A program made the translations under genes and the position numbers. A stretch of 64,000 nt of DNA from positions 15,532 through 79,531 of the forward strand of contig JAUSJG010000027.1 of NCBI GenBank assembly GCA_030647555.1, in the 5' to 3' direction. Shown here piece by piece: positions 5,304 through 61,343 of the stretch; the stretch's first letter is position 1; every line of letters starts with the position of its first letter. The notes under the pieces were generated by a model. The model was given only the letters and a program-made list of their open reading frames with translations, was not told where the DNA came from and searched no databases. This DNA is from a bacterium (GTDB lineage: Bacteria; Patescibacteriota; Andersenbacteria; UBA10190; CAIZMI01).

Positions 5304-5317
5304 AATAGTTATTAATT

Positions 5318-21431: not shown

Positions 21432-21516
21432 ACAAATGGAAAAAAACAACGCGGAAAATCCCGCGTTGTTTTGTATTGTAGTTTTCCCCGACTTCGTGCC
21501 TACTCTCTGTTTAGTT
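21432..21516. repeat. Second identical copy of the 85-bp terminator module, abutting the stop codon of the minus-strand GT-C gene
   Basis: Exact 85/85 identity with 21061-21145. Confidence 0.65.
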
Positions 21517-28541: not shown

Positions 28542-28547
28542 TTACCT

Positions 28548-28601
28548 GCACCACATTCCAAGTGGAGCAAGCTTGCTCCACTTGGAATGTGGTGCAGGCT
28601 T
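28548..28601. terminator. 54-bp perfect palindrome downstream of ligA (cctgcaccacattccaagtggagcaagc|gcttgctccacttggaatgtggtgcagg)
   Basis: Read directly. No T-run, so function as terminator is uncertain. Confidence 0.4.
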
Positions 28602-30354: not shown

Positions 30355-32875
30355 GGCTAAGGAAATTGCAAAAAGAAAAGCGACAACGTTCGAATTTATT
30401 TCCGCAAAGTTTAACAAGGTCACAAGAGAGGCTCAATTTAACTATCGAGTTTGTTTTGAGAATTTAGAAGAACTAAATTTTGTTGAAACATTAATCTTTC
30501 CCCAGGAGCGAGATATTGTCATCGGGGATGATGATTTAATTCAGACAGCATTATCGGATTTACATCTAGTTTTGGGAGTCAGTTATTACAAACTTTATTG
30601 TCCGTCAGATGTTGTTTTGAAACGGAAACTCACGCTTGAGCAAGCTTCTTTTTGGACAAAACTATACACCGAAGGGATGGGGGAATTTTATTTTCGAAAT
30701 CAGTTAGATCCAAAAAAGTTTCAAGGTTTTAAGGGGGAGCCGGGATTGAAAGCAAAGAGTTGGTCTGTTAGTAGAAGTGCCAGGAGTTTGGTTGGTGTTG
30801 GTGGCGGTAAGGAGTCGGCTGTTGCCGTAGAGCTTATGAAAGAACACGCGCATGATGTGACCGCTTTTGTCCTGGAAGCCAGACCATCCACCATCGTGGA
30901 TGAATCGATTAGGGTGATGAGTGTTCCGTCATTGCGTGTTCAAAGGGTGTTAGATCCTAAATTGTTTGGGGGATTGAGCGATACATATAACGGTCATGTG
31001 CCCGTGTCGGCAATCATTGCGTTTGCCGGGTATTTTGCGGCGCTTCTGTATGGTTTTAGAGAAGTTGTTGTGGGCAATGAATTCAGTAGTAATTTTGGCA
31101 ATGTTGATTATAAAGGAATCGCGGTAAATCACCAATGGAGCAAATCGCAAGTTTTTGAGAGTGCGTTTCAAAAATATACGCGAGAAAATATCTCGCCGGA
31201 TGTAGAATATTTTTCTTTATTACGTCCGTTTTATGAAATCAGGATTGCGCAAATGTTTTCCAAATACAAACAATATTTTTCGGTATTTTCCAGTTGTAAT
31301 CGAAATTTCAAGATAAAAGAAACAACGGAAAAGAAGTGGTGTGGCGAGTGTGCAAAATGTGTGTTTGTTTTTACGTTGCTGTCCGCATTTCTCACAAAAA
31401 AAGAATTGGTTGGAATTTTTGGCGCGAATCTTTATGACAACAAAAAATTATTGCCGATCTTTCGCGATCTGTTAGGGATTGGAAGAATGAAGCCGTTTGA
31501 TTGCGTGGGAACATTTACAGAGACGCGAGTTGCTTTTGAAATGTCGGCAAAAAAATATGGTAAAACACCGGTGCAAAAAGCGTTGTTGGGAGAATTTAAG
31601 GTGACAGGTCAAGAGCGTAGTGAAGTAATGCAAATGCAAAAAACTGAACTACAACCGCCCTATTTGCTTTATGGTGTAAATAATATTCTTCTGGTTGGCT
31701 ATGCGCGTGAGGGTGTGGAGTCGGAAAAATTTCTCAAAAAACATTTTCCTAAAATAAAACTCGGTATTGCCGATAAAAAATTTGGCGATGATTATTTAGC
31801 TAAACAAAATGATTTTGATTTGGTAATTAAAACCGCAGGTATGCCGGGCCGTTTGATTAAAATTCCGTATACAACGGCTACAAATTTATTTTTTGCCAAC
31901 GTTGATCGCAGGAAAGTTATTGGTGTTACCGGCACAAAAGGAAAGAGTACAACAGCCACTTTAATTGCGTGGATTATTGAACAAAGTGGTCGACCGGTGC
32001 AGTTGCTGGGAAATATCGGCAAACCGATGTTGCATGCCCTCGACAAACCCTTGGTGGAAAATGAGCTGGTTGTTTTGGAATTATCCAGTTACCAACTGGA
32101 GGATCTGCAATTTTCACCGCACATTGCCGTCGTTACCAATCTTTTTCCGGAACATATGGATTATCACGGCGATGTTAAAAAATATTATCATGCTAAGAAA
32201 CAAATTATTACAACGCAAACAAGCGATGATTTGTTTGTTTACAATGCGGATGATGAGCGTTTGGTCGGGTGGGCGAAAAAGAGTAGGGCAAAAACGGAGA
32301 AGTTTGTCGTCAAACTACCACTAAAAGATAAGGAGATTCCGTTGCTTGGTGAGCATAATAAAAGAAATGTGCGAACGGCGGTAACCGTGGCTCGTCATCT
32401 TGGAATTAATGATGCTGTTATCGCACAAGCAATTAAAACATTTACTCCGCTTAAGCATCGCCTACAATTCGTGGGAGAATATCATGGTATTAAGTTTTAC
32501 GATGATGCTATTTCCACCACTCCGGAATCAACTATTCAGGCGTTGGAAACTTTAAAGAAAGTGGCAACAATCTTTTTGGGTGGCCAAGATCGCGGTTACG
32601 ATTTTTCAGAATTGCGAAAAAGCTTAAAAAAATATGGCGTAAAAAATGTTGTGTTGTTTCCTGACAGCGGGGAAAAAATTATCGATTCCGCGAAAGGTTT
32701 TGAAAACGTCCTGAAAACCTCAAGTATGAAAGAAGCGGTTAAATTCGCATATAAATTTACCAAGCCGGGTGAAATCTGTCTGTTGTCCTGTGCGTCACCC
32801 AGTTACAGTATCTGGAAAGACTTTGAAGAAAAGGGCGATTTGTTTCAGGAGGAAGTGAAAAAACAAGCGAAGTAG
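30347..32875 (+). CDS. murD: Fusion protein: N-terminal ~450-aa domain with PP-loop-like motif (VGGGKESAV) and CGECAKC cysteine cluster, fused to C-terminal MurD-like Mur ligase (UDP-MurNAc-L-Ala:D-Glu ligase family). Start set at the ATG overlapping the gatA stop (ATGGTTAA); longest ORF begins 30224.
   Basis: C-terminal half: GVTGTKGKSTTATLIAW (Mur ligase P-loop), MurD-like N-domain KTAGMP...IPYTTATNLFFANVD, C-terminal FLGGQDRGYDF. N-terminal half has no recognisable Mur motifs. Continuous reading frame, no stop. Confidence 0.6.
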   Translation: MVKAKEIAKRKATTFEFISAKFNKVTREAQFNYRVCFENLEELNFVETLIFPQERDIVIGDDDLIQTALSDLHLVLGVSYYKLYCPSDVVLKRKLTLEQASFWTKLYTEGMGEFYFRNQLDPKKFQGFKGEPGLKAKSWSVSRSARSLVGVGGGKESAVAVELMKEHAHDVTAFVLEARPSTIVDESIRVMSVPSLRVQRVLDPKLFGGLSDTYNGHVPVSAIIAFAGYFAALLYGFREVVVGNEFSSNFGNVDYKGIAVNHQWSKSQVFESAFQKYTRENISPDVEYFSLLRPFYEIRIAQMFSKYKQYFSVFSSCNRNFKIKETTEKKWCGECAKCVFVFTLLSAFLTKKELVGIFGANLYDNKKLLPIFRDLLGIGRMKPFDCVGTFTETRVAFEMSAKKYGKTPVQKALLGEFKVTGQERSEVMQMQKTELQPPYLLYGVNNILLVGYAREGVESEKFLKKHFPKIKLGIADKKFGDDYLAKQNDFDLVIKTAGMPGRLIKIPYTTATNLFFANVDRRKVIGVTGTKGKSTTATLIAWIIEQSGRPVQLLGNIGKPMLHALDKPLVENELVVLELSSYQLEDLQFSPHIAVVTNLFPEHMDYHGDVKKYYHAKKQIITTQTSDDLFVYNADDERLVGWAKKSRAKTEKFVVKLPLKDKEIPLLGEHNKRNVRTAVTVARHLGINDAVIAQAIKTFTPLKHRLQFVGEYHGIKFYDDAISTTPESTIQALETLKKVATIFLGGQDRGYDFSELRKSLKKYGVKNVVLFPDSGEKIIDSAKGFENVLKTSSMKEAVKFAYKFTKPGEICLLSCASPSYSIWKDFEEKGDLFQEEVKKQAK

Positions 32876-32879
32876 CGAT

Positions 32880-32915
32880 ACCCTCCCTTATTCAAGGGAG
32901 GGCGAGGGTGGGTTT
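32880..32915. repeat. Hairpin-family repeat ccctcccttattcaagggagggcgagggtggg (partial copy of the CCTCCCTTT..AAAGGGAGG family)
   Basis: Read directly. Related copies at 44255, 48726, 53100 and 61237. Confidence 0.5.
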
Positions 32916-33111
32916 TGTGTGTGTATATTTTATTTTTGGTAAACGGTATAGGTATTTAGGCTTGTTCATCATAGCTTCGTCTTCGTTTGTATCGATATAT
33001 CGATACAAGGTTTTGGAAATTTTGAATTTCATTAGAAATTAGATATTAGTAATTAGTCATTTTGGGCGTCGATAAAACAGTATTAGCAGAGTTAAACAAG
33101 ATGTTTATATT

Positions 33112-34819: not shown

Positions 34820-34893
34820 CGCGGGGAAGAGCAGCCCGGTCGCTCGCATGGCTCATAACCATGAGGTCGCAGGTTCGAATCCTGCCCCCGCTA
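34820..34893 (+). tRNA. tRNA(CAU), initiator-like (C1/U72 mismatch, A11:U24)
   Basis: Cloverleaf folded by hand: acceptor cgcgggg/ccccgct, D-stem gagc/gctc, anticodon stem catgg/ccatg with loop ctCATaa, T-arm gcagg-ttcgaat-cctgc, discriminator A. No encoded CCA. Confidence 0.7.
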
Positions 34894-34935
34894 CTATTAC
34901 TAAAAAGACCCCTGTGGGGTCTTTTTAGTAATAGA
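34894..34935. terminator. Perfect hairpin after the tRNA (ctattactaaaaagacccc-tgt-ggggtctttttagtaatag)
   Basis: 19-bp stem read directly. Similar aaaatacccctgtggggtatttt hairpin at 35044-35066. Confidence 0.45.
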
Positions 34936-34940
34936 ATGTG

Positions 34941-35375
34941 TGCAGGATTCGAACGGTTCATATTTTCGTCGCACGAAAACATGAACCGGTGGCCAGAATT
35001 ATGCAATATCAATTGCATAATTCGAGGCCAAATCCTGCCCACAAAATACCCCTGTGGGGTATTTTTATTGTTATGATCGAGTGCAGGATTTGAACGGTAT
35101 CGTTGTTTCGTAAAACAACGATACCGGTGGCCAGAATTATGCAATATCAATTGCATAATTCGAGGCCAAATCCTGCCCCCTGCGTGGCTCGTGTTTTATT
35201 TATAAAATTTCGCAAAGCGAAATGACAATAATGACGAGCGATATCTTCGAACCAATACTATTGGTTCGAAGATATCGCTCGGATTTGAACGCCGGAGCAT
35301 ATTTTGCGAAGCAAAATGCGAGGCGGTGGCCAGAAACTTTCGTGTCAACGAAAGTTTCGAGGCCAAATCCTGCCC
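34941..35375. repeat. Three tandem ~95-100-nt structured elements (34941-35040, 35083-35178, 35281-35375). Conserved scaffold: gcaggatTYgaac-[hairpin1]-ggtggccaga-[hairpin2]-tcgaggccaaatcctgccc. Candidate structured ncRNAs or tRNA-end-derived miniature elements.
   Basis: Scaffold termini pair (gcaggatt/aatcctgc). tggcc/ggcca encloses hairpin 2. Hairpin 1 differs completely in sequence among the three units yet keeps a 13-14-bp stem. Hairpin 2 is aattatgcaat-atca-attgcataatt in units 1-2 but aaactttcg-tgtcaa-cgaaagttt in unit 3 (compensatory changes). The 3' end aatcctgccc equals the 3' T-arm/acceptor of the adjacent tRNA. Confidence 0.6.
35262..35306. repeat. Perfect inverted repeat gagcgatatcttcgaacc-aatactatt-ggttcgaagatatcgctc between structured units 2 and 3
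   Basis: 18-bp stem read directly. Confidence 0.45.
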
Positions 35376-35518: not shown

Positions 35519-35591
35519 GGCTGGATAGCTCAGCGGTTAGAGCAATGGCATCATAAGCCATGGGTCGCAGGTTCGAATCCTGCTCCAGCTA
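35519..35591 (+). tRNA. tRNA(CAU), elongator-type (Met or Ile2/lysidine)
   Basis: Acceptor ggctgga/tccagct (G1-U72). D-stem gctc/gagc. Anticodon stem atggc/gccat with loop atCATaa. T-arm gcagg-ttcgaat-cctgc identical to the first tRNA. Discriminator A. Confidence 0.75.
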
Positions 35592-35617
35592 CAAATTATT
35601 CGTAGGGTATTTGTACA

Positions 35618-36583
35618 TTGTTCGCAAAACGTACGGATACGGTATATAATAGTAGCATGAGAGCAAAAGTTGTGGAAAAGTCGCGGGCAATTCAATTGCG
35701 TAAAAACGGTTTAAGTGTGAAACAGATTGCTCAAAAATTAAGCGTCAGCAAGGGTAGTGTCAGTCCTTGGGTGAAGCTGGTTGTTGTTCCGAAAGAAAAG
35801 AGAAAAAAGATCCGCGAAAGAATGTTAATGGGCGGAGAGAAGGGGAGAAAGAAAATTTTGCGAGGTTGGGATGAATATCGAATATTGCATCCAAAACCGC
35901 CACCATATGTTAAACCAGTCCGTTTAATTGACACTTTTTTTGACAAGTGGTCGCCCGAAATGGCGTATGTGCTGGGCTATTTTGCAGCGGACGGCTGTAT
36001 GTTTCGAAACAAGCGTGGGTCTTATTATATCGAATTTACCTCCACAGACATTGAGTTGATTGCATGTGTAAAAAGTATTTTGGAATCAACAAACAAACTT
36101 GAACGATACAAGCTTAAAAACCCAAAATATAAAATCAGGTATAATATTCAGCTTGGGAGTAAAAGTGCTTTCTTGTCGCTTAATAAACTTGGTTTAACAC
36201 CAAATAAGAGTTTAATAATCAAGTTTCCAGCTGTGCCTGATGAGTATTTGGGGCATTTTTTGCGTGGTAACCTTGATGGCGACGGCTGTGTTACTTTCAC
36301 AAATTATTTTCGAAAAGACAGGGGAAAAAGATATTTGAGTTTAATGATCCGTTTCACCAGTGGAAGTAGAGTGTTTTTAGTCGGGATGAAAAATAGGATT
36401 GAACAAAAAATACCGAATATCGGTGGAAGTTTGATATTATACACTCCAAGGCACCATGTTTTGGCGTATTGCACGTCAAGTGCTAGACAACTGTATAAGA
36501 TAATGTATCCTAATAAATTAGTGCCCTGTCTAAAGCGTAAACGTGACATTTTTCTTAGGGCATTTGAGATTTTGGACCCGTAG
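35618..36583 (+). CDS. Free-standing double-motif LAGLIDADG homing endonuclease with N-terminal helix-turn-helix domain
   Basis: 321 aa. Motif 1 MAYVLGYFAADGCMF and motif 2 LGHFLRGNLDGDGCV (LAGLIDADG consensus). N-terminal LSVKQIAQKLSVSKGSVSPW HTH-like. Last two codons plus stop overlap the 5' acceptor of tRNA-Asp. Confidence 0.85.
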   Translation: MFAKRTDTVYNSSMRAKVVEKSRAIQLRKNGLSVKQIAQKLSVSKGSVSPWVKLVVVPKEKRKKIRERMLMGGEKGRKKILRGWDEYRILHPKPPPYVKPVRLIDTFFDKWSPEMAYVLGYFAADGCMFRNKRGSYYIEFTSTDIELIACVKSILESTNKLERYKLKNPKYKIRYNIQLGSKSAFLSLNKLGLTPNKSLIIKFPAVPDEYLGHFLRGNLDGDGCVTFTNYFRKDRGKRYLSLMIRFTSGSRVFLVGMKNRIEQKIPNIGGSLILYTPRHHVLAYCTSSARQLYKIMYPNKLVPCLKRKRDIFLRAFEILDP

Positions 36584-36648
36584 TTTAATCGGTAAAACAC
36601 CTGCTTGTCACGCAGGAGACAGCGAGTTCGATCCTCGTCGGGTCCGCC
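36574..36648 (+). tRNA. tRNA-Asp(GUC) with encoded CCA
   Basis: Acceptor ggacccg/cgggtcc. D-stem gttt/aaac. Anticodon stem cctgc/gcagg with loop ttGTCac. T-arm gcgag-ttcgatc-ctcgt. Discriminator G then CCA. Confidence 0.8.
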
Positions 36649-36677
36649 AAAAAATACGCCTTTCGGCGTATTTTTCG
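36649..36677. terminator. Bidirectional rho-independent terminator (aaaaaatacgcc-tttc-ggcgtattttt) serving tRNA-Asp and the convergent dsbA-like gene
   Basis: Symmetric hairpin flanked by A-run and T-run. Confidence 0.6.
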
Positions 36678-37384: not shown

Positions 37385-37455
37385 AATGATTGATTGAAGT
37401 GTTAGATCTATATGATGAGCATATAGAAAGGATGGAGGAGAAGCAAGCGCAAATT

Positions 37456-37600
37456 TTCAATTATCAATTTTGCAATTTTCAAATAATTTTCAATGATTTA
37501 ATTATTTGATAGCGTCACCATCTTTGAGAATTAGAAGAATTGATAATTATTTGAAAATTGGTCATTGAAAATTGAAAATTTTGTATAATTATTCATATAA
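37456..37600. promoter_or_regulatory. AT-rich divergent promoter region sharing conserved blocks with the htpX upstream region (5318-5450)
   Basis: ttcaattatcaatt...ttttcaa and aaaattggtcattgaaaattgaaaatttt present in both. Confidence 0.45.
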
Positions 37601-42060: not shown

Positions 42061-44202
<2,142 letters not shown>

Positions 44203-44212
44203 AGGTTTTTGT

Positions 44213-44405
44213 GGATCACACGCGATAATGGGTCATTTGAGGTAGGCGTAGCGATTCCTCCCTTTTTCAAAGGTTGCACACGCATCGGCGGTGTTACCCT
44301 GATGGGTTAAAGGCGGGGAGGGATTGTGAAGATAAGCACAGTCTAAGCTTCTTATCTTAATCCACCCTCGCCCTCCTTTAAATAAAGGAGGGAAACGACG
44401 GCGTC
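44213..44405. repeat. Composite ~190-bp structured element E1 (left hairpin cctcccttt...aaagg interrupted by a 37-bp segment, middle arms ggcggggagggatt/aatccaccctcgccc, right hairpin ccctcctttaaataaaggaggg)
   Basis: Near-identical modules to E2 at 53056-53246. The 37-bp segment ttgcacacgcatcggcggtgttaccctgatgggttaa (44274-44310) is present in E2 as its reverse complement at 53181-53217. Confidence 0.6.
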
Positions 44406-44517
44406 TTCTTTTTTAATTTGACGTAATTCTGCGTGTACTGCTATCCCGCTATTGCGTGTGATCCGTTTTTGTGTTGTTTATCGTAAAAACTTTGTTTTGT
44501 TGTGTTATCATATACGG

Positions 44518-46263
44518 ATGAATGACCAACAAGATAAAAATCTAATAAGTGAACCTATTAAACCGCCAGTTGTGAATAATCCTATTCCTCAAACAAAGGT
44601 AGTTTCTGACATTATTCCGGAAGTTGATAAAAGTCTTTTGATAAAACCGAATGACCAGCTTTTGAATATAGATCTTCAGTCCAAAGAAAAGATTGCGGAA
44701 GTGAAGCAAAAAAACGACTTTAAAGTGCTAACAGCTGTGCCATTGGTTGTCGATAATAATGCCAGCTCGATACTACTGGGGATTGAAGAGAAAAAACCGT
44801 TTAATCGGTTGTTTATCATTACTCCTTTTTTTCTATTGGTACTTGCCGGTTTTGCCGTGGCTTTCTATAGCGGAGTTCTGCCGTTGCCATTTTGGGGTTT
44901 GACGCATGAACAAGTCATAGAAAAAATGTTTGACGCTATCCCCAATATTCGTTCCGGTCGTTTTGGGATGGAAATCAATTTTAAATCCTCGGCAAGACAA
45001 GCGGGAATGCAAGGATATGATTTATCTCCAATGTTGGGTGGGGCGGGAAACGGCGCGTCGGTTGATGGTGCCGGCGAAAGAGATCGTGTACGGCTTAACG
45101 CAACTAGTGATATTGCGACCGCCTTGGAAGCTTATAAAAAACAGAATGGTAAATATCCGCAATTTCTTAATGATATAAAAATCGTCACTCCTGATATTAT
45201 CCTTGATCCGGCTTCAAAAAACCAATTTGGTTATCGACAAGAAAAGGGCGGAATGGATTTCACACTGCATATACAGATGGAGACCGATCAAGGAATCAAT
45301 AATTTTCGAAATGCCGTGTTGGTAATTCCTTCCGCATCTCTGCAAACTGTCGAGGATAAGTTGGCGGTGGTGCATGCTGATACGCCAAAACTTAAGAAAC
45401 AAAACGTATCGTCTGTTTCAGCAAATACAACACCGGCATATGACCCAACGGTTGTTCTTCAAAATTTACCGTCCGAAATTGACGCAAATCTTCGTTTTTC
45501 CGGTTTAGCTAAACAAGGTATCGCTGGTAGTGACGCGCTTTTGAATATTGACGGTAGTTTAAAATTGAGTGGAATGAGTTTTTCCGCCGGTTTGGGATTG
45601 ATAAAAAAAGGCGATATTGTTTATGGGAAAGTTAAAGAGGTTCCAACGTTGGGTTTCTTTGATCTTGCTGTGCTTAGAGATAAATGGGTCAAGTTGGAGA
45701 AGGCCGATTTAAGCAAATTAGGGTTTAAAGACGCGGATCAGCAGTTACAACAGGAAAATATGGCAAAGTATCTTGTGTTGGCGAAAACATACTTGCAAAT
45801 TCTAAAAGAAGAAAAAGTCTTTTCAGTTGTTAAAGAGTTGCCGAAGACGAAAGATAAAAATGACACTTATTATCATTACGCGGTGAATATTAATAGTGAT
45901 AAAATAGCGGTTATTTACGAAAGATTAAACGCCGAAATAAAGAAGCAATTTGGCGGTAAAGGTGACTATATCAGCGCTGATTTGATCGCTTATCTTCGTG
46001 GTTCGGAATACGCCAAAATCAATAAAATTTCTCAACAAAACACGCAAATAGAGATCTGGATCGATACAAAGAATTTTTGGCCGCATAAATTCACTTCAAA
46101 CTCGGTCTTTGTACCACCGGATAATATTCAAAAATTGAAAGACAAACAGTACCTTGCGCAGGTGACCTTTGATCTATTTGACGTAAATAAGCCAATTGTT
46201 GTCGACGCGCCCACAGAATTTATTTCTCTCGATGATGCGCAGAAACTGGTGACGGGGAAATAG
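44518..46263 (+). CDS. Membrane-anchored hypothetical protein with a pilin-fold-like segment (ATALEAYKKQNGKYP)
   Basis: 582 aa from the ATG at 44518. One TM helix at ~aa 100-125. Motif resembling the conserved alpha-beta loop region of type IV pilins and pseudopilins. Confidence 0.45.
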   Translation: MNDQQDKNLISEPIKPPVVNNPIPQTKVVSDIIPEVDKSLLIKPNDQLLNIDLQSKEKIAEVKQKNDFKVLTAVPLVVDNNASSILLGIEEKKPFNRLFIITPFFLLVLAGFAVAFYSGVLPLPFWGLTHEQVIEKMFDAIPNIRSGRFGMEINFKSSARQAGMQGYDLSPMLGGAGNGASVDGAGERDRVRLNATSDIATALEAYKKQNGKYPQFLNDIKIVTPDIILDPASKNQFGYRQEKGGMDFTLHIQMETDQGINNFRNAVLVIPSASLQTVEDKLAVVHADTPKLKKQNVSSVSANTTPAYDPTVVLQNLPSEIDANLRFSGLAKQGIAGSDALLNIDGSLKLSGMSFSAGLGLIKKGDIVYGKVKEVPTLGFFDLAVLRDKWVKLEKADLSKLGFKDADQQLQQENMAKYLVLAKTYLQILKEEKVFSVVKELPKTKDKNDTYYHYAVNINSDKIAVIYERLNAEIKKQFGGKGDYISADLIAYLRGSEYAKINKISQQNTQIEIWIDTKNFWPHKFTSNSVFVPPDNIQKLKDKQYLAQVTFDLFDVNKPIVVDAPTEFISLDDAQKLVTGK

Positions 46264-48579: not shown

Positions 48580-48975
48580 TATTTGAAACTTGGGCGACAG
48601 AATGCCCAATACCCAATTTCCAATAACCAATGAAATGTTCGAATGTTCAATTCGGGCATTTTTGTAAAGGAGGGCAGTCTTTGCGAGCCATCGCTCGAAG
48701 CGAGGCGAAGCAATCTCTCGCGTTTCCTCCCTTTATTCAAAGGGAGGAGGGGAGGGATTTTAGGCGAGTGTAAGGCAAAAACAACCAACACATATATTAT
48801 AGTAAGCGCTCACAGGTTGAGGAAATAGCCGTAGTGGCCACATCGAAGGTGGTGCTTCAGCACTTCCTCGGGAGTGGATGCAGGTTAGCGACGAACGAAC
48901 CCACACCACCTTCGAGGAAGCCGTGAGCGGCCACCTCGAAGGTGGTCACTTATCAAAATATTTTGTAACATAAAC
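48580..48975. repeat. Repeat-rich structured intergenic region combining members of several families (CCAATTTCCAA motif, cctccctttattcaaagggagg hairpin, cgctcacaggttRaggaaatagccRtag motif, ccaccttcgagg/cctcgaaggtgg palindromes)
   Basis: Motifs read directly. The cgctcacaggtt...aggaaatagcc 29-mer also occurs at 3396-3424. Confidence 0.5.
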
Positions 48976-48977: not shown

Positions 48978-49700
48978 ATGCATAAAGGTCTACTCCTCGT
49001 CAACGAAGGTCCGGATGGTTCCGGCAAAGAAACGCAGACACGACTACTTTGCGACTATTTGGAAGGAGAAGGGTATAATCTCGTAAAATTTTCGTTTCCT
49101 ACATACAAGCAAGATCCGGTGGCGGACTTGATTCGGTTTATGTTGCACGAGGCCAAGGATGATTGGAACACACGCGATTGGCGTTCTAAAGCGGTTTTAT
49201 ATGCATCGAACAGGTTACGCTTCGCGCCAGAGATGCGCGCAGCATTAGAAGTTCCGGGGAACGTTGTTATATGTGATCGGTTTGTTTCCAGTAACCAAGG
49301 CCATATGGGCGCGTTGGCGGAAGATCCGACCGAGCGCTTACAACGCTACGCCTGGATTGATCATTTGGAATTTGAAATGATGGGCCTGCCAAGACCGGAC
49401 GTTGTTTTATTACACACGATGCCGAGTGAAATGCGGGCTCAGCTTCTAATGAAACGCGAAAACGGAAATCCGGACGCGCACGAAGGAAATTCCGCATATC
49501 TAGACCTTGTCGAACAAAGTTACTACGAACTGATGGATTTTTACCCGGAAGTTTGGCGACACATTCCGGCGGACATGGACGGAAGGTTGCAGACGCCGGA
49601 TGAAGTGCACGGACGTGTGAAGCAAGCACTTCTGGGACATCAAAATTGGATTGAATTTGTAGAACAACGAGAGCCGGCTGGCATTCAATTTGAAATTTGA
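48978..49700 (+). CDS. tmk: Thymidylate kinase-family protein (dTMP kinase)
   Basis: 240 aa. P-loop EGPDGSGKETQ. DRF motif (CDRFVSSNQGHMGA). Lid region. Confidence 0.75.
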   Translation: MHKGLLLVNEGPDGSGKETQTRLLCDYLEGEGYNLVKFSFPTYKQDPVADLIRFMLHEAKDDWNTRDWRSKAVLYASNRLRFAPEMRAALEVPGNVVICDRFVSSNQGHMGALAEDPTERLQRYAWIDHLEFEMMGLPRPDVVLLHTMPSEMRAQLLMKRENGNPDAHEGNSAYLDLVEQSYYELMDFYPEVWRHIPADMDGRLQTPDEVHGRVKQALLGHQNWIEFVEQREPAGIQFEI

Positions 49701-49868
49701 AATTTTTAATTTGAAATCAATTTTTAATATTTAAATTTGAAATAACGACGCGCGGTTTTCAAATTAAGATATTTAACTATTTCAAATTGATTAAAAATTT
49801 CAAATTTCAAATTAAAAATTGGCAGTCAACTAGGTGACAAACCACACGTTTTCTTTTAATCTGAGCTT

Positions 49869-52384: not shown

Positions 52385-52404
52385 AATGAAATTTTGGTTT
52401 ATCT

Positions 52405-52435
52405 GTGACCGACCCTGGCGTACAGGGACGGTCCC
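52405..52435. repeat. 31-nt element GTGACCGACCCTGGCGTACAGGGACGGTCCC in the miaA/52471 divergent region; inverted near-identical copy at 59414-59444
   Basis: 30/31 identity after reverse-complementing. Both copies sit in divergent promoter regions. Confidence 0.55.
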
Positions 52436-52470
52436 AGATATAAAGTAATTGATGTGATAGAATATGCAAT

Positions 52471-53040
52471 ATGAGGATAATTCGTTTGTTGATGTCACTT
52501 GTTGTTCTGTTTTTCCTTGTTTGGGTCATGCTTATTTGGGGGTTGCCTACGATAGTGGCCAATAGCACCTTTTTTTGTGAGCGGTGGAAAATGACCACTG
52601 GCATTTGTGCTCCTGACGCATTAAGTAAGGCGCAAGGAATAAGCAATTGGACAAAGAAGAATGTGCCACTATCGACGGATAATTTTGCGGGGAAAACTTT
52701 GAGTGATGCCTATGTCGGTTTGAATGTATTGGAGAATGCGGCACGTGACAAGCTAGGCAATGATAAAGTTAATCTGGCCTTGGATAATGTGGACAAAGGA
52801 ATTAAAAGCACGGAAATTGTGTTAAATAAACAGGGCTTTGGCAGTAAACTGCAAGATATTCCAAAAAACGCGCAAAATTTACTGACTGAAGCGCGCAAGG
52901 CACTTGAGCAACTGCGCGGTATATTTGATAAAACACAACGTCGCACCGAGGATGTTACGAATGCGGTAAATAATACCAAGAAAGCACTGGATGCTTTGTC
53001 GAGTGTTTTGCCGAGCGTGGTGCCGAGTCCGGGGAAGTAG
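52471..53040 (+). CDS. Hypothetical membrane-anchored/secreted protein
   Basis: 189 aa, N-terminal TM helix, no recognisable motif. Confidence 0.45.
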   Translation: MRIIRLLMSLVVLFFLVWVMLIWGLPTIVANSTFFCERWKMTTGICAPDALSKAQGISNWTKKNVPLSTDNFAGKTLSDAYVGLNVLENAARDKLGNDKVNLALDNVDKGIKSTEIVLNKQGFGSKLQDIPKNAQNLLTEARKALEQLRGIFDKTQRRTEDVTNAVNNTKKALDALSSVLPSVVPSPGK

Positions 53041-53055
53041 AGTACGGAAGATAAT

Positions 53056-53246
53056 GGATCACACGCAATAGTGGGTCATTTGTAGAAACCGCAACGTTTC
53101 CTCCCTTTTTCAAAGGGAGGCGGGGAGGGATTGTGATTATAAGGACATCGTAGCTTCTTAATTTAATCCACCCTCGCCCTTTAGCCCATCAGGGCAACAC
53201 CGCCGAAGCGTGTGCAACTTTGAATAAAGGAGGGTAACGGGGCGTC
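53056..53246. repeat. Composite structured element E2 (paralog of 44213-44405) with the 37-bp segment inverted and located in the right-hand hairpin
   Basis: See E1. Shared blocks ggatcacacgcRataRtgggtcatttg, ttcctccctttttcaaagg, ggcggggagggattgtga, agcttctta.tttaatccaccctcgccc, aataaaggaggg.aacgRcgRcgtc. Confidence 0.6.
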
Positions 53247-53259
53247 ATTTATTTATCGG

Positions 53260-55038
53260 TTACTCAAACGTGATTTTCTTCTCGGCGATATTTTTGGAAA
53301 GCAGAGAAATTGTATCTTCGATCGATAACACTCCGCCGTCTTTTTTGCCGTGCATGCGTAGGGCGATTGTTTTGGCTTGCATTTCGCGGTCACCGACCAC
53401 GGCAATCACCGGAACTTTTTTCATTTCATTGTCGCGAATTTTCTTGCCGATTTTTTCGTTACGTTCGTCGACCTGGGAGCGAATTCCTTGTTTTTTTAAT
53501 TCAACAGCCACTTGTTTTGCGTAATCCAATTGTGCTTCACCGATTGGAAGAACTGAAACTTGTACCGGGGCGAGCCAGAGAGGGAAATTACCGGCCAAAT
53601 GTTCGATGAGAATGGAAAGGAAACGCTCAATCGATCCCATGATCGCGGCATGAATCATGACGATACGTTCTTCTTTGCCCTCTTCGTTGTGGCAGAAAAG
53701 ATTAAAGCGTTCCGGCATATTAAGATCTAATTGGATTGTTGCTACTTGCCATTGGCGTCCCAAAGAATCCTGGGCCATGAAGTCTAATTTTGGTCCATAA
53801 AAAGCGGCTTCGCCCAAACCCTCAAACCAGTCTATTTTTTTCTCGGTGACGATTTCACGTAAAACCGTTTCGGCATATTCCCAGCGCTTTGCATCGCCAA
53901 GGTATTTTTCGGGATGTTTTGGATCATGAATGGAAAGACGGACACGTAGGTCAAAACCGAAGACGCCGTAAAATTCATGAACGATGTCCCAAATCTTGAG
54001 AAATTCCTCTTTGGCTTGCGATGAGCGACAGAAAACGTGCGCATCGTCTTGAGTAAAACTGCGGGCACGGGAAAGACCGGAAAGTTCGCCGGATTGTTCG
54101 TCGCGATAGCACATTGTGGTATTGGCGTAACGCTGTGGCAGTTCGCGGTAGCTCCAGGCCTTGCGAGCGTAGATTTGTGTGTGGTGCGGGCAGTTCATCG
54201 GCTTCATCGCAAACTCGTGTCCTTCACGCGTGGTAATGCGAAAAAGTTCGTCCTTGAATTTATCCCAGTGACCGCTCACTTCGTACAATTCTTTTTTGGT
54301 AATGTGGGGGATTTCTACTTTTTCATATCCGCGCGCGTCGCGCAACTTCCAAACGAAATTATCAAGGAGAGTGCGTACCATCATGCCGTTTGGTGTCCAG
54401 AGGGGTAGACCACTCCCAACCAAATCGGAGAAAACAAACAAGTCCAATTCACGGCCAAGTTTTTTATGGTCGCGTTTTTCCGCTTCTTCGAGCATCGTCA
54501 AGTACGTGTCCAATTCTTCTTTTGTTGCAAAAGCCACGCCGTAAATACGCGTGAGCATTTTATTCTTTTCATCACCGCGCCAATATGCGCCGGCGGTCTT
54601 AAGTAGTTTGAACGCGTCGGGATTGATTTCCTTGGTGGATTTTACGTGTGGACCACCACAAAGATTATCAAATGTACCGGAAAGATAGAAACTGACATTT
54701 TTTTCACCTTTTTCTTTTAATCCATTGATGAGCTCTGTTTTGTACGGATCGTTTTTGTAAGCTTTTAGTGCTTCATCAAATTCGACGTTGTGTTGTTTGA
54801 ATTCAATGTTTTCCGCGATCATTTCGCGCATTCTTTTTTCCAGTTTTGGAAAAATGTCTTGATTAATTGTTTCAGGAAGGTCGTAGTCTTGATAAAAACC
54901 GTTTTCGATTACAGGGCCAACACCCAAACCGACGGTTGGGTAAAGCTCTTGCACTGCCATGCTCATCAAGTGAGAGAGGGAGTGGCGAATAGGTTCGATT
55001 GGATTGGTTTCGTTTGGGTTGGATTGTTTGGAAGACAT
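53260..55038 (-). CDS. thrS: Threonine--tRNA ligase lacking the N-terminal TGS domain
   Basis: 592 aa. Begins at the editing-domain motif HSLSHLMSMAV. Class II core and C-terminal anticodon-binding domain. Confidence 0.9.
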   Translation of the reverse strand: MSSKQSNPNETNPIEPIRHSLSHLMSMAVQELYPTVGLGVGPVIENGFYQDYDLPETINQDIFPKLEKRMREMIAENIEFKQHNVEFDEALKAYKNDPYKTELINGLKEKGEKNVSFYLSGTFDNLCGGPHVKSTKEINPDAFKLLKTAGAYWRGDEKNKMLTRIYGVAFATKEELDTYLTMLEEAEKRDHKKLGRELDLFVFSDLVGSGLPLWTPNGMMVRTLLDNFVWKLRDARGYEKVEIPHITKKELYEVSGHWDKFKDELFRITTREGHEFAMKPMNCPHHTQIYARKAWSYRELPQRYANTTMCYRDEQSGELSGLSRARSFTQDDAHVFCRSSQAKEEFLKIWDIVHEFYGVFGFDLRVRLSIHDPKHPEKYLGDAKRWEYAETVLREIVTEKKIDWFEGLGEAAFYGPKLDFMAQDSLGRQWQVATIQLDLNMPERFNLFCHNEEGKEERIVMIHAAIMGSIERFLSILIEHLAGNFPLWLAPVQVSVLPIGEAQLDYAKQVAVELKKQGIRSQVDERNEKIGKKIRDNEMKKVPVIAVVGDREMQAKTIALRMHGKKDGGVLSIEDTISLLSKNIAEKKITFE

Positions 55039-55075: not shown

Positions 55076-55178
55076 ACGGACGGGTAAGGTCGGACTGCCG
55101 GGCGGTCCGACCTTAACTGGTCGCGTCGCCGTCCAATGAGGGTCGGACCCCTCGAGGAGTCCGACCCTTTCTAGACAA
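55076..55178. repeat. REP-like hairpin cluster (GGTCGGAC arms)
   Basis: taaggtcggac-tgccgggcg-gtccgacctta and gagggtcggaccc-ctcgaggag-tccgaccct. Confidence 0.55.
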
Positions 55179-55555: not shown

Positions 55556-55714
55556 TACCGCCGCTCGTCGTCTGACGCGCGGTTTTTTTTAATTCATTTT
55601 TCTTGAAAGAAAAATGAATTAATCCCTCGAAGCTCGTCTCGCGAGACGAGCGAAGTGGGATATCTCCAACTTTAAGGGTCACCCCTAAAGTAAGCGCTAC
55701 TTTAGGGGTGACCC

Positions 55715-58700
55715 TTAAAGTTCTTCCTGTGCGGGTTCAAACTTGTGTTGAATTACCGGTTTCGCTTCTTCGACTTTGATGCAATTTGGTCCGAGAATGT
55801 TGCCAAATAGATTTTGCAGGAATGGCGTGTAAGTAATTAAATAGGATGTTTTGACGAGATCTTTTTGATTTTCCTTCTGGATTTCCAAGAAGACTGCGGT
55901 GCGGCCCTTGCCGACCTTTTCCAGAATTGCTTTCAAATCCATGAAGGTGCGTTTCGTCGCATTTACCGGAACACTGATTGTGATGCTAATCGGAGGTTTT
56001 TCGTCAAAAATAGCTTTGTTTTTTAGGGCCTTTGGTGGATTGGCCGGGTCGTATTCCGACGCGGAGTCGGCTAAAATTTTCGGTACGCCGTCCTTGTCGC
56101 TGACGCGTCCTTCAATAATTAAGACTTTATCTTCCAGCCACAGGTTTTGGGTGGTTTCCAGCAATTTTGCGAACACTAAAACCTCCAACGAACCGGAGCG
56201 GTCTTCAACAGTGGCGAAGGCCATGGCTTTTTGTGTGCGAGTGATAATTTTTTTGATGGTGGTAATTATACCGCCGATTTTCACTTTTTCGTTCGCATTA
56301 TGAATGGTGATGTCGGCAATTGGGGTTGTGGCTTCCGCGAGCGCTGGGGCGATATCCATCAATGGATGACCGGAAATAAATAATCCCAACAATTCTTTTT
56401 CCCAACTAAGGCGTTGCTTTTGCGTGGCCGGTTCAACGGCTTTTAGGGTTACTTTTGGTCGCGCCACTTCGGCGGGCATCATACCAAAAAGATTGGCCTG
56501 ATTAGTTAGCAATTGTTTGCCAATATCGCGGTTGAAATTCAAAAGTGTGTCGGTGTTTTCCAAAATTTGGTTGCGTTCGGCAAGTGTGTCAAAAGCGCCG
56601 GCCTTAGCTAGACTTTCGACAGACTTTTTATTCAGATCACGCGAATGCACGCGGGAGAAGAAATCTATGAGATCTTTGGACGAGCCGGCCTTCTCGCGTT
56701 CAGCGATAATTGCTTCTACAATATGTTCGCCGACATTTTTTACCGTGTGCAGTCCAAAACGGATTTCGTCTTTCGGAATTGAATCATTGGCTTTCAAGAC
56801 TGTAAAACCTTTATGTGAAAAATTTACATCCGGCGGTAACACGGGAATTTCCATCCGTTTACATTCGTTGATGATGATGGCAATTTTTTCGATATCGCCG
56901 GATTCGGCGGAAAGGACGGCGCACATATACTCGGCAGGGAAGTTGGCCTTCATGTAGGCAGTTTGGTAGGCAACACGTCCGTAACACGCGGCGTGTGCTT
57001 TGTTGAAACCGTAACCTTGGAAGGGTTCGAACAAATTCCAAATCGCTTCGGCTTGGTCTTTGGTTAAGTTGCTGTTTTTTTGACACCCATCAACGAAAAT
57101 AATATGTTGCTTTGCCATTTCTGCCGGAATCTTTTTTCCGATGGCTTTTCTAAACTTATCGACTGTTTCCCAGTTGTAGCCGGCTAGTTCCAGAGCGGTA
57201 AACATTAGGTCATCTTGATAAACTAAAATACCATAAGATTTGGCCAAGAAATTTTGTGCCTTCGGGTGGAAATATTTGATTGGACTGCGTCCAAGTTTAC
57301 GTGCGATATATTCCGGAATGTTATTCATTGGTCCCGGGCGATAGAGGGCCACCATGGCGTTGATGTCATGTATCGTAGTTGGCTTCAGATCCATTAAATG
57401 TTTTGTCATACCTTCGCCGTTTAGTTGAAACAATCCTTCCGTTTCGCCATTCGCCAACATTTCAAAAGTTTTTTTGTCATCGAACGGAATCCGTTCGATG
57501 TCTATTTTAATATTGTGGTGAAGTTTCACTAGGCGCACCGCGTCTTCCAGTATGGCCAAATTACGGATCCCTAAAAAGTCGAGTTTGGTTAGGCCGACGC
57601 CATCTTCGCCAACGGTGTACATGTCGTACTGGGTAATGCGTCGGTTGCCGTCTTTCGGATCAAGCTGAATTGGGACGTAATTAACAAGTGGTTGGGGAGC
57701 AATAACTACGCCGGCCGCGTGCACCGAAACATGGCGCATCGTGCCCTCCAGTTTGCGAGAAATATCCAGAATGTGTTTTATTTCCGGGTCAGTGTCATAT
57801 ATTTTTTTCAATTCCGGTTCAATTTCCATGGCGTGGTCGATAGTCATCGGAAAGCCTTGCGAGCCCATTGGGATCAGTTTGGCCACGCGGTCACCCAGTT
57901 CATATGGTTTATTTAACGCTCTGGCCACGTCACGCACCGCACCACGCGCCATCATCGTACCGAATGTGCCGATCTGGGCCACTTTATCATCGCCGTATTT
58001 TAGTTTGGCATAGTCAATTACTTCGCCTCGGCGATTATCCGCAAAATCCATATCGATATCGGGCGCGGACGGGCGGAAAGGATTTAAGAACCGTTCAAAA
58101 GGAAGTTGGAATTCGATTGGATTAACATTTGTGATTCCGGAAAGATAAGCAACCAGTGATCCGGCGGCGGATCCACGCACGGTGGTGTAAATATCCGATT
58201 TACGGGCGAAGCGTAATAAGTCGGCAACCACTAGAAAATAGGGGGCGTAGTTTTTTTGTTTGATAACATCCAGTTCGTATTTGCGTCTTTCTTCGGAAAC
58301 CTTATCTTCCGTTAGGCCATGGAAGTTCATCCCTTTTTGCGTAAGTTCGTCGAGCATTTGATCGGCGGTTTTTCCTTCTTCTAGCGCAAAGTCGGGGAAG
58401 ATAAATTTGCCTAGAGTCAGTTCGATGTTGCAACGATCCGCAATAACTTTTGTATTAGTGACAGCCTCGGGAATATCGGAAAACCATTCCATCGCTTCCT
58501 CGGTGGAAATAAAATGGTATTGGCCGGTGCCGGCAAAAATGCCGGTGTCGCCCACGTCGGTGTTGGTGGAAATGGCAACGAGTGTTTTGTGCGCTTCCGC
58601 ATCGTCGGGGCGCAAGTAATGAGAGTCTTGGGTGGCGACTAGCGGGATATTCAGTTCGCGCGAAAGTTCGATCAACATAAAGCGCCACTTTTCAAAATTG

Positions 58701-59245
58701 TCGACGTCCGGGTGGTGCATTATTTCCAGGTAATAATTTTCGGCGCCGAAAATGTCTTGATATTCACGGATGACTTCAATCGCTTTTTCTTTGCCACTGC
58801 CGGTGATGGCGCGCCCCACTTCACTTCCGATACAACCGGATAAAGCAATGATGCCCTCGTGATTTTCACGAAGCAGTTCTTTGTCGACGCGCGGTTTATA
58901 GTAATAACCTTCGAGGTGAGCCGAGGTGATTAATTTAATTAAATTTTTATAACCGGTCATGTTTTTGGCCAGTAGCGTTAGGTGGTAACGGCGATTATCA
59001 ATACCGGTTTCTTTTTGTTTGTGACTACGAACGGCGACATAAGTTTCTACACCAATTATCGGCTTAATCCCGTTTTTTTTGCAGGCGGAATAAAAATCAA
59101 TGATGCCGTACATCGCGCCGTGGTCGGTGAGACCGATGGCGGACATATTAAGTTCCTTGGCGCGTTTAACCATGTCGTCCACTTTCGAAAGACCATCCAG
59201 GAGGGAATAGTGGGAGTGGGTATGGAGGTGGATGAATTCTGCCAT
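55715..59245 (-). CDS. dnaE: DNA polymerase III alpha subunit (start trimmed to MAEFIHLHTHS)
   Basis: PHP domain HLHTHSHYSLLDG. Polymerase core (fingers GYGFNKAHAACY). OB-fold near the C-terminus. Confidence 0.95.
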   Translation of the reverse strand: MAEFIHLHTHSHYSLLDGLSKVDDMVKRAKELNMSAIGLTDHGAMYGIIDFYSACKKNGIKPIIGVETYVAVRSHKQKETGIDNRRYHLTLLAKNMTGYKNLIKLITSAHLEGYYYKPRVDKELLRENHEGIIALSGCIGSEVGRAITGSGKEKAIEVIREYQDIFGAENYYLEIMHHPDVDNFEKWRFMLIELSRELNIPLVATQDSHYLRPDDAEAHKTLVAISTNTDVGDTGIFAGTGQYHFISTEEAMEWFSDIPEAVTNTKVIADRCNIELTLGKFIFPDFALEEGKTADQMLDELTQKGMNFHGLTEDKVSEERRKYELDVIKQKNYAPYFLVVADLLRFARKSDIYTTVRGSAAGSLVAYLSGITNVNPIEFQLPFERFLNPFRPSAPDIDMDFADNRRGEVIDYAKLKYGDDKVAQIGTFGTMMARGAVRDVARALNKPYELGDRVAKLIPMGSQGFPMTIDHAMEIEPELKKIYDTDPEIKHILDISRKLEGTMRHVSVHAAGVVIAPQPLVNYVPIQLDPKDGNRRITQYDMYTVGEDGVGLTKLDFLGIRNLAILEDAVRLVKLHHNIKIDIERIPFDDKKTFEMLANGETEGLFQLNGEGMTKHLMDLKPTTIHDINAMVALYRPGPMNNIPEYIARKLGRSPIKYFHPKAQNFLAKSYGILVYQDDLMFTALELAGYNWETVDKFRKAIGKKIPAEMAKQHIIFVDGCQKNSNLTKDQAEAIWNLFEPFQGYGFNKAHAACYGRVAYQTAYMKANFPAEYMCAVLSAESGDIEKIAIIINECKRMEIPVLPPDVNFSHKGFTVLKANDSIPKDEIRFGLHTVKNVGEHIVEAIIAEREKAGSSKDLIDFFSRVHSRDLNKKSVESLAKAGAFDTLAERNQILENTDTLLNFNRDIGKQLLTNQANLFGMMPAEVARPKVTLKAVEPATQKQRLSWEKELLGLFISGHPLMDIAPALAEATTPIADITIHNANEKVKIGGIITTIKKIITRTQKAMAFATVEDRSGSLEVLVFAKLLETTQNLWLEDKVLIIEGRVSDKDGVPKILADSASEYDPANPPKALKNKAIFDEKPPISITISVPVNATKRTFMDLKAILEKVGKGRTAVFLEIQKENQKDLVKTSYLITYTPFLQNLFGNILGPNCIKVEEAKPVIQHKFEPAQEEL

Positions 59246-59306
59246 GGTCAGTAGATAGAAAATATATTTTGAAAAACAGTGTTCTGTGAAATCAATCGAC
59301 ACCACA

Positions 59307-59336
59307 AAATCCCAAATCCCAAATCCCAAATCCCAA
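59307..59336. repeat. Tandem heptamer (aaatccc) x4
   Basis: Read directly. Confidence 0.6.
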
Positions 59337-59413
59337 ATAATGCTCTAAATCCCAATTTCCAAAACGACACTTCGGTAATTAGTCCAATGAAATGTCGAAA
59401 TGACAAAAGATCA

Positions 59414-59444
59414 GGGACCGTCCCTGCACGCCAGGGTCGGTCAC
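59414..59444. repeat. Inverted copy of the 31-nt GTGACCGACCC... element
   Basis: See 52405-52435. Confidence 0.55.
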
Positions 59445-59601
59445 TGATAGTAGTGTTTTTTTGTTGGTTTCTCATGAATTTTCATCTTACCAAGCCACCC
59501 AAAAATGCACTATTGACAATTTGGGTGGTTTGGAGTATAATTATGGGTTGTTCTTGGAAAACTTGTGCGTTCTGTGGTCGCTTTTTGTGAAGGAGAATGT
59601 C

Positions 59602-61229: not shown

Positions 61230-61236
61230 TAGCATT

Positions 61237-61343
61237 CCTCCCTTTATTTAAAGGGAGGCGGGGAGGGATTAAGTCAATAATCCTTTGATTGCCCAATAGA
61301 CATAACCCATCCCCGCCTTCCCTTGAATAAGGGAAGGAATGCG
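61237..61343. repeat. Compact (insert-free) copy of the composite element: cctccctttatttaaagggagg + ggcggggagggatt...aacccatccccgcc + ccttcccttgaataagggaagg
   Basis: Same three-module architecture as E1/E2. Confidence 0.5.

Follow-up and report, generated by a model that had tools for sequence, protein, structure and literature searches.

In a 64,000-nucleotide stretch of contig JAUSJG010000027.1 (assembly GCA_030647555.1), hereafter the window and the reference for all coordinates unless another sequence is named, two related intergenic repeats, E1 (44212-44465) and E2 (53056-53246), were compared with each other and with sequences from relatives. Our analysis makes it quite likely that E2 is a right-truncated copy of a ~250-bp, non-coding and almost fully palindromic mobile element that resembles MITEs (miniature inverted-repeat transposable elements) and belongs to a narrow, Parcubacteria-like clade of candidate phyla radiation (CPR) bacteria. 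According to the mechanism that we propose, the whole element would have moved by transposition, while a 36-nt cassette carried in one of its arms would have arrived by an independent, site-specific insertion into a hairpin target rather than by a flip from one arm to the other. For the host, the consequences would then be passive or modest, for example through a stable 3' RNA hairpin provided to both converging transcripts. The repeat units and cassettes described below were sought in the window and in a total of ~209 kb of sequence that included relatives (given L numbers here).

E2 is a truncated copy of a composite palindromic repeat

E2 is a genuine feature of an uncultured Patescibacteria genome: a copy, truncated at its right end, of a small palindromic repeat that is non-coding and probably mobile. 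The first-pass annotation of the window had described E2 as the second copy of a composite element, a description that our alignments bear out: outside a 37-nt segment, E2 aligns colinearly with E1, with identities of 52/62, 27/30 and 27/29 in the shared blocks and of 85% across the backbone overall. The limits originally proposed for E2 are also good, since the homology to E1 spans 53055 to ~53250. The window contains exactly two copies of the 37-nt segment (TTGCACACGCwTCGGCGGTGTTrCCCTGATGGGyTAA), one on the + strand (44274-44310) and one on the - strand (53181-53217); they are 34/37 identical, and 100 dinucleotide shuffles gave 0 matches. As had been recognized from the outset, the segment is inverted and lies in opposite arms of the two elements, namely in the left (A) unit of E1 and in the right (B) unit of E2. 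Both copies are indeed located downstream of gene ends, and E2 occupies a convergent gap between a 189-aa open reading frame (ORF) on the + strand, with its stop at 53040, and the threonyl-tRNA synthetase (ThrRS) gene thrS on the - strand, with its stop at 53260-53262. The product of the 189-aa ORF has no Pfam match, and its synteny is conserved in relatives.

At the core of each composite, a unit A on the + strand faces a unit B on the - strand over a 32-nt, partly palindromic linker, giving rise to one long branched hairpin. From left to right, E2 begins with an outer-left terminal module, TGGATCACACGCAATAGTGGGTCATTTG (53055-53082, +), that is homologous to both terminal inverted repeats of E1. 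Then follows unit A, whose hairpin, as read from the sequence, consists of CCTCCCTTT (53100-53108), the loop TTC and AAAGGGAGG (53112-53120) on the + strand, continued by the G-rich tail CGGGGAGGGATT (53121-53132, +). The linker GTGATTATAAGGACATCGTAGCTTCTTAATTT (53133-53164, +) forms the apical part of the long hairpin and has the same orientation as the E1 linker, according to both alignment and folds. Unit B lies on the - strand, with its tail at 53165-53180 and its head at 53218-53239 (alignment; covariance model R1, 95.1 bits, E=6e-23), and is followed by a right-flank remnant, GGGCGTCATTTATTTATCGG (53240-53259, +), which adjoins the thrS stop codon and shows weak homology to E1 44398-44420.

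E1 (44206-44471, +, with its flanking repeats) retains both ends. Its 20-bp terminal inverted repeats, which begin with GGATCACACGC and are exact over the first 11 positions, read GGATCACACGCGATAATGGG at 44213-44232 and the reverse complement at 44445-44464. They enclose unit A (44253-44330, +, carrying the 37-nt segment), the linker, unit B (44355-44397, -) and a right segment. TTTTTG direct repeats flank the element at 44206-44211 and 44466-44471, each one base away from the terminal repeat. The ends of E1 thus bear the signature of terminal inverted repeats together with a possible target duplication. The pattern GGATCACACGCRATARTGGG matches the window only at 44213-44232 (+), 44445-44464 (-) and 53056-53075 (+), with 0.01 matches expected by chance. 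Since only the left of these terminal modules (53056-53075) is present in E2, which lacks the right terminal repeat and ends ~20 nt beyond unit B at an intact thrS stop codon, we regard E2 as the right-truncated copy. When folded as DNA, E1 forms a long hairpin with its terminal repeats paired (z = -5.65), and E2 reaches z = -3.4.

Like MITEs, the composites are small (~195-252 bp), non-coding (no conserved ORF) and dispersed in multiple copies: besides the two in the window, two more were found at different loci of other genomes or metagenomes. A cognate autonomous insertion sequence (IS) with the same ends was not found: the GGATCACACGC ends were not encountered again, either in the window or among viral contigs, plasmids or phages, E1 matched nothing among plasmids and phages, and the unit, terminal-repeat and cassette patterns matched nothing among viral contigs.

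The arms are members of a dispersed family of REP-like units

The structures first described as the hairpins of E1 and E2 are members of a dispersed family of ~38-nt units that resemble repetitive extragenic palindromic (REP) sequences. Type A units read TTCCTCCCTTTwTTCAAAGGGAGG-CGGGGAGGGATT and type B units TTACCCTCCTTTATTyAAAGGAGGG-CGAGGGTGGATT. In each, a C-rich strand, a 3-4-nt loop and a G-rich strand make up a 9-bp hairpin that continues into a second G-rich tail; a short CG(T/A)T motif is conserved 5' of every unit hairpin. With an nhmmer profile built from nine units, eight units were found in the window (E 1e-12 to 1e-13; shuffles give 0 matches). Four of these are the arms of the composites: the cassette-interrupted unit A and the bare unit B of E1, at the positions given above, and, in E2, the bare unit A (53095-53136, +; E=2.6e-12) and the cassette-interrupted unit B (53162-53239, -; partial matches). 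A solo, B-like unit (32876-32918, +) abuts the stop codon of a Mur-ligase-domain gene (30224-32875) in a convergent gap, and a solo type A unit (48721-48761, +) lies in the rplA-tmk gap. The remaining two, both bare, form a doublet (61233-61274, +, and 61300-61341, -) with a 25-nt spacer, without outer modules and without a cassette. Units therefore occur as solo units, as bare doublets and as parts of composites. All eight, distributed over five loci, are intergenic and start 0-145 nt past a stop codon, and at all five loci unit A lies on the strand of the upstream gene. Outside the window, copies were also identified in promoter-side gaps, in a divergent gap of L013 and directly upstream of atpB in L007.

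All bare units carry four closely spaced G-runs (32896-32912, 48742-48756, 53115-53129 and 61253-61267 on the + strand; 44362-44376 and 61306-61322 on the - strand), and the motif at 32896 is a canonical G3x4, GGGAGGGCGAGGGTGGG. Judging from these runs, the unit could switch between a hairpin and a G-quadruplex. The insertion of the cassette splits the four-G-run motif of the unit.

The unit family raises an alternative to a MITE-like origin, namely that units and doublets are strict REPs and REPINs (REP doublets forming hairpins) that are moved on single-stranded DNA by a REP-associated tyrosine transposase (RAYT; Y1 HUH) encoded elsewhere, so that the composite would be a mosaic of the type of the bacterial interspersed mosaic elements (BIMEs) and not a DDE-type MITE. 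The units share with REPs an imperfect palindrome within the 20-40-nt range, an extragenic location and a high copy number (eight units/64 kb), and inverted hairpin doublets of the REPIN type are present at 61233-61341, in E1, in E2 and at L013:12438-12533. These 36-38-nt palindromes are found 3' of genes as singletons and as inverted doublets with 24-32-nt spacers, their A and B types alternate, and a head-to-head arrangement in L012 occurs besides the usual tail-to-tail one, an organization that resembles REPINs (PMC3116915); the CG(T/A)T motif conserved 5' of every hairpin points in the same direction. However, E1 possesses terminal inverted repeats and a candidate target duplication, features that REPINs are without. 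Moreover, neither the window nor the ~120 kb of sequence from syntenic relatives, which represent a small part of each genome, contains a Y1_Tnp or RAYT gene, and RAYTs in CPR bacteria are unreported in the literature that we searched, where we likewise found nothing on REP- or MITE-type repeats in these bacteria. We consider a strict REPIN origin rather doubtful, and retain the MITE-like element as the better description of the composites.

A 36-nt cassette interrupts one arm of each composite

The 37-nt segment that distinguishes E1 from E2 comprises a 36-nt cassette core and one junction base; in E2 these are TGCACACGCTTCGGCGGTGTTGCCCTGATGGGCTAA and a T (53181-53217, -), and the core folds into two small hairpins. 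The core extends from TGCAC to CTAA, its preceding base varies (G, T, A or GT), its right junction is constant, and its two ends are not inverted repeats. Its insertion point on the 3' strand of the unit hairpin is flanked by AAAG(G) on one side and AGG on the other, and its orientation relative to the unit is always the same. Because every base of the bare, perfect 9-bp hairpin is still present on the two sides of the cassette, we take the bare unit as the uninterrupted state and the segment as an insertion. The opposite polarity, with the cassette-bearing form as the ancestral one, is unlikely, as it would need a base-exact deletion many times over. A simple target-site duplication for the cassette was also rejected: AAAGG stands on both sides, but removing one copy does not leave the bare unit (AAAGGGAGGCGGGG).

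Searches of species-representative genomes and Joint Genome Institute (JGI) metagenomes with 20-21-mers from the segment yielded four further true copies, in L004 and L007 (metagenome-assembled genome (MAG) CAIZMI01 'bin-405') and in L008 and L012 (metagenome contigs). The other matches (5/7 in genomes and 3/5 in metagenomes) were G+C-rich coding DNA, in about the number expected by chance. All six known cassettes (44275-44310 and 53181-53216 in the window; L004 1992-2027; L007 1100-1135; L008 2760-2795; L012 1128-1163) reside in units, and neither their site nor their orientation differs from one to the next; four are in type A and two in type B units, including a solo unit in L007 and a head-to-head pair in L012. 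A covariance model of the cassette-bearing unit and a profile of the cassette alone detected neither a further copy nor a solitary cassette in the ~209 kb. The cassette-bearing solo unit of L007 (1084-1166) lies between atpZ and atpB, and its GGGAGG stands ~10 nt upstream of the ATG of atpB, where it could act as the ribosome-binding site or mask it.

The first cassette hairpin has the form GCAC-A-CGC[UUCG or AUCG]GCG-GUGU and the second the form (G/A)CCC[UGAU]GGG(C/U); those of E2 are GCAC-A-CGC[UUCG]GCG-GUGU and GCCC[UGAU]GGGC. A C(UUCG)G tetraloop is present in three of the six copies. In hairpin 2, the closing pair has undergone a compensatory change from A-T to G-C, consistent with selection for this second hairpin. 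When the loop base of hairpin 1 (A/T) and the closing pair of hairpin 2 (A-T/G-C) are considered together, all four combinations occur among the six copies, indicating either recombination between cassettes or recurrent change.

The cassettes (33-36/36 identical, 92-100%) are far more conserved than the composites that host them (65-85%). Among the four composites, the E1 and E2 backbones are 85% identical and all other pairs 65-76%, and arm A carries the cassette in E1 and L008, arm B in E2 and L004. Nevertheless, the closest cassettes are those of E1 and L004 (35/36) and those of E2 and L007 (36/36), even though the L007 unit is a solo A and the host unit in E2 is a B, while the E1 and E2 cassettes differ from each other at 3/36 positions, the compensatory pair included. 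Cassette similarity hence cuts across both the backbone grouping and the arm grouping. In addition, the bases that are diagnostic of types A and B, 1-5 nt from both cassette junctions, are unchanged. Given this disparity in conservation and the untouched A/B bases beside the junctions, an independent, site- and orientation-specific insertion of the cassette is favoured, and we regard it as the simplest account of the difference between E1 and E2, with moderate confidence that is held back by the small number of copies and by the fact that four of the six were found through the cassette itself.

Two ways in which the cassette could have changed arms within one element were weighed against independent insertion. 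A flip of the interior between arms was rejected, as neither the linker nor the A/B-specific tails differ in orientation between the two elements. Transfer of the cassette between arms by hairpin-templated repair, template switching or short-tract gene conversion, which would make the E1 and E2 types isomers, could draw on arms that are homologous and pair together, with the cassette as their only large unpaired branch. It would also agree with the mirror-image position of the cassette in E1 and E2 and with their backbones being mutually closest despite the difference in cassette arms. However, the unchanged A/B bases would require conversion tracts that end exactly at the cassette borders, and each of the two cassettes is nearer to one from another sequence than to the other. 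The cassette is further found in the solo unit of L007, which has no partner arm, and the expected intermediate, a composite with cassettes in both arms, was not seen among the composites. We thus consider inter-arm transfer improbable.

Conceivably, the cassette is itself an ultra-small, non-autonomous mobile element, placed into one fixed position of the REP-like hairpins of CPR bacteria by a site-specific recombinase that recognises single strands or hairpins (HUH/RAYT-like or IS110-like). It would then be a parasite of a parasite, with the cassette nested in the unit and the unit in the element bounded by terminal inverted repeats, a speculative proposal to which we give rather low credence. 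Its fixed site and orientation and its lack of terminal inverted repeats, in six copies, are as in elements of the IS200/IS605 or IS110 type; a cognate transposase and evidence of excision or of an empty site were not found for it. GC skew is positive across the whole window, which places E1 and E2 on one replichore, and their two cassettes, being in opposite orientation there, fit poorly with a strict lagging-strand bias, although with n=2 this is a weak point. At 36 nt it is, to our knowledge, well below the size of any described transposable unit.

E1 and E2 are lineage-specific

The best named homologues of ThrRS and GyrB, encoded next to E2 and E1, respectively, come from MAGs of the Patescibacteria/Parcubacteria group, and the 3' gaps of both genes were compared among relatives. 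The thrS gap, which measures 219 bp with E2 in the window, is 70 bp long and holds an unrelated GTATGCTGTATG hairpin in lake strains (L013 and others; ThrRS 93%), holds a different repeat in L018 (ThrRS 94%), shrinks to 35 bp in L022 (ThrRS 80%) and measures 139 bp with other repeats in L021 (ThrRS 71%). Similarly, the gyrB gap of ~280 bp with E1 corresponds to ~60 bp in L020 (GyrB 95%) and 35 bp in L022 (GyrB 87%), and L021 and L025 (GyrB 86-88%) carry other hairpins there. E1 and E2 are lineage-specific, being absent from the orthologous sites of the relatives compared. The GyrB of L020 (2124-5687) is 1187 aa long and contains an intein (PF14890), which the GyrB of the window (42070-44202) does not.

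Units show the same turnover. The 93% relative carries a bare B-24 nt-A doublet (L013:12438-12533) in the gap between the gene for a 186-aa protein and miaA, where the window has a different repeat, and a solo unit in L025 shares the rplA-tmk gap with the solo unit of the window; no unit was found in L020, L021, L022 or L026/L027. Of the composites outside the window, that of L008 sits 3' of comEC. Therefore, the family is confined to a narrow clade, within which copies are gained and lost from one close relative to the next, as is typical of mobile DNA. Two candidate sites were discarded: in L024, proposed as an empty site for the bare doublet, the downstream sequence is unrelated, reflecting a synteny break or a chimera, and the atpZ-atpB gap of an 88% relative, proposed as a cassette-free unit, holds no unit at all.

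Several observations weigh against the mobility of the element or the independent insertion of its cassette. The TTTTTG repeat of E1 is T-rich and offset by one base on each side and could be due to chance, and E2, having one terminal repeat only, does not allow a flanking duplication to be checked. No transposase, RAYT or IS110-type gene was found among the window ORFs (Pfam scans) or in the gene tables of ~120 kb from relatives. The intergenic DNA of the relatives is too diverged for a base-exact empty site, and one attempt, at the atpZ-atpB gap, gave no orthologous unit both with and without the cassette. As for the cassette, the search by which four of the six copies were obtained biases the apparent rule of one cassette per composite, and strong purifying selection on a functional cassette could also account for its higher conservation.

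RNA structure and transcription termination

As RNA, E2 is predicted to fold into stable structures on both strands, with -77.4 kcal/mol (z = -4.3) for the + strand and -64.7 kcal/mol (z = -3.1) for the - strand. A hairpin of -77 kcal/mol, placed where the two converging transcripts have their 3' ends, could stall or stop transcription, block exonucleases or stabilise the transcripts. The more specific suggestion that both copies may double as terminators found no support, as neither E1 nor E2 displays a canonical stem followed by a T-run on either strand. A consensus terminator scan of both strands returned 0 sites for either 52800-53500 or 44000-44700, and the unit hairpins run into CGGGG or AAACG instead of a T-run. 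Canonical-looking terminator hairpins do exist elsewhere in the genome (e.g. 21072-21101). Promoter scans found none in E1 or E2. With Rfam 15 at gathering thresholds, only three tRNAs were detected in the window, and at E values up to 10 the matches of E1 and E2 were at chance level (15-17 bits); the elements are, accordingly, neither intrinsic (Rho-independent) terminators of the canonical form nor members of an Rfam family.

These structures nonetheless invite a third explanation, in which E1 and E2 are not selfish DNA but cis-acting RNAs selected by the host, such as terminators, 3'-end stabilisers or small structured RNAs. The placement of the window loci shortly past stop codons, with unit A on the upstream gene's strand, would suit such a role, and so would the stronger fold of the E2 + strand RNA, the C(UUCG)G tetraloop of half the cassettes and the compensatory pair in their second hairpin. 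T-rich stretches also follow the structure on the + strand, at 44413-44419 in E1 and at 53248-53256 in E2. On the other hand, neither a canonical terminator nor an Rfam family was detected, and copies also occupy the promoter-side gaps of L013 and L007. Furthermore, in close relatives the same gene ends carry unrelated hairpins or nearly no spacer, and since these relatives lack E1 and E2 there, no specific element is required at these gene ends. A host-selected RNA is thus an unlikely explanation, on a par with inter-arm transfer. Finally, a hammerhead (no Rfam match despite CUGAUG in the cassette), a tRNA-like gene (none at the element with ARAGORN), an integron attC site (RYYYAAC/GTTRRRY cores absent on direct reading) and a clustered regularly interspaced short palindromic repeat (CRISPR) array, diversity-generating retroelement or retron (no array spacing, no reverse transcriptase gene, elements non-coding) were all dismissed.

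Other repeats and features of the window

Apart from the E1/E2 family, at least four more families of dispersed repeats or hairpins occupy intergenic DNA of the window, with members at 52400-52450 and 59399-59449, at 12510-12546 and 55084-55120, at 3379-3422 and 48802-48845, and at 6098-6149, 13950-13992 and 14089-14143. Related motifs fill orthologous gaps of the relatives (after thrS in L018, after thrS and between rplA and tmk in L021, and at gyrB in L025), each relative holding a different repeat in the same gap. AT-rich, heptamer-like tracts (AATTGAA, TTGGTCA, AAATTTT) recur in many intergenic regions (5314-5440, 12631-12662, 33032-33063, 37450-37583 and 49684-49822; L026 9958-10000), some of them as long inverted repeats.

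A perfect 85-nt direct repeat (21061-21145 and 21432-21516), each copy with a bidirectional-terminator-like hairpin, AAAACAACGCGGAAAATCCCGCGTTGTTTT, lies just past a type IV pilus cluster gene of pilin-like type (20646-21056, N_methyl motif). Perfect palindromes were identified at 28545-28598 (27-nt arms, no spacer), at the 3' end of a DNA ligase gene, and at 55668-55722 (25-nt arms, 5-nt spacer), where the right arm overlaps the last bases and stop of dnaE (55715-59329, -), so that the palindrome lies at the 3' end of this gene and not upstream of it. In a tRNA region (tRNA genes at 34820-34894, 35519-35592 and 36574-36649, two of them tRNA-Met), a 321-aa ORF (35618-36583, +) with LAGLIDADG_3 and HTH_23 domains, of the homing-endonuclease type, lies between tRNA-Met and tRNA-Asp and overlaps the tRNA-Asp call with its 3' end; perfect 56-nt direct repeats (34985-35040 and 35123-35178) occur in the same region.

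Genomes of CPR/Patescibacteria are small and streamlined, and this clade carries several fast-turning-over families of intergenic hairpin repeats. The E1/E2 family consists of three nested non-coding layers, namely the unit, the palindrome bounded by terminal inverted repeats and the 36-nt cassette. If the cassette inserts on its own, it would set a lower size limit for a mobilisable DNA module and would point to a hairpin-specific recombinase in CPR bacteria. In practical terms, such repeats probably break short-read assemblies of these genomes (the single same-strain contig recovered from a Logan assembly is only 2.5 kb long), and they could serve as strain markers.

Comparison with known systems

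REPs and REPINs of E. coli and Pseudomonas are short extragenic imperfect palindromes, located mostly 3' of genes as singletons and inverted doublets (PMC3116915, PMC3337134). Like them, the units described here are dispersed in many copies, and their doublets fold into a long hairpin. There are also differences: instead of a simple palindrome with a 5' GTAG, the unit combines a hairpin with a second G-rich tail (the four-G-run motif); terminal inverted repeats and a candidate target duplication are present in the composite; the elements reside in a CPR bacterium; and a RAYT was not found in the sequences scanned. In the BIMEs of E. coli, palindromic Y and Z units alternate in orientation, with other short motifs between or beside them. 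The A and B subtypes similarly alternate in orientation and have other short motifs between and beside them.

The Correia/NEMIS elements of Neisseria and the ERIC/IRU elements of enterobacteria are non-coding MITEs of 100-300 bp with terminal inverted repeats and short flanking duplications, intergenic and often co-transcribed. The composites share with this type a long palindrome bounded, in the intact E1, by terminal inverted repeats, internal length variants at a fixed site and truncated copies (see the review PMC3184786). They differ from it in that their interior is built from units that also circulate alone and in that a discrete 36-nt cassette, which sits in one arm or the other, makes up the length variant. 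We know of no parent IS with the ends of E1.

Site- and orientation-specific insertion into REP hairpins has been described for IS1397/ISKpn1 and for IS110-family elements (ISPpu9/ISPpu10, IS621) (PMC1525189, PMC12288879). In the case of ISPpu9, the non-coding module ssr9 spreads alone into REPs using the IS transposase (PMC12288879), so that a non-coding passenger of REP targets has a direct precedent. The cassette likewise has a fixed position and orientation in a REP-like palindrome. In contrast to these elements, it is far smaller (36 nt), non-coding and devoid of recognisable IS ends; it also lacks a core duplication that would regenerate the empty unit, and one base at its left junction is variable (G, T, A or GT).

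The BOX elements of Streptococcus pneumoniae are modular intergenic repeats with a tandem A-Bn-C organization and variable internal modules. The composites resemble BOX in being modular, non-coding, intergenic and assembled from short boxes; here, however, the modules are nested in a hairpin strand and not arranged in tandem, and the sequences are unrelated. Relative to all of these systems, what is new is the host, the 36-nt size of the cassette and the three-level nesting, while the kind of element is already known.

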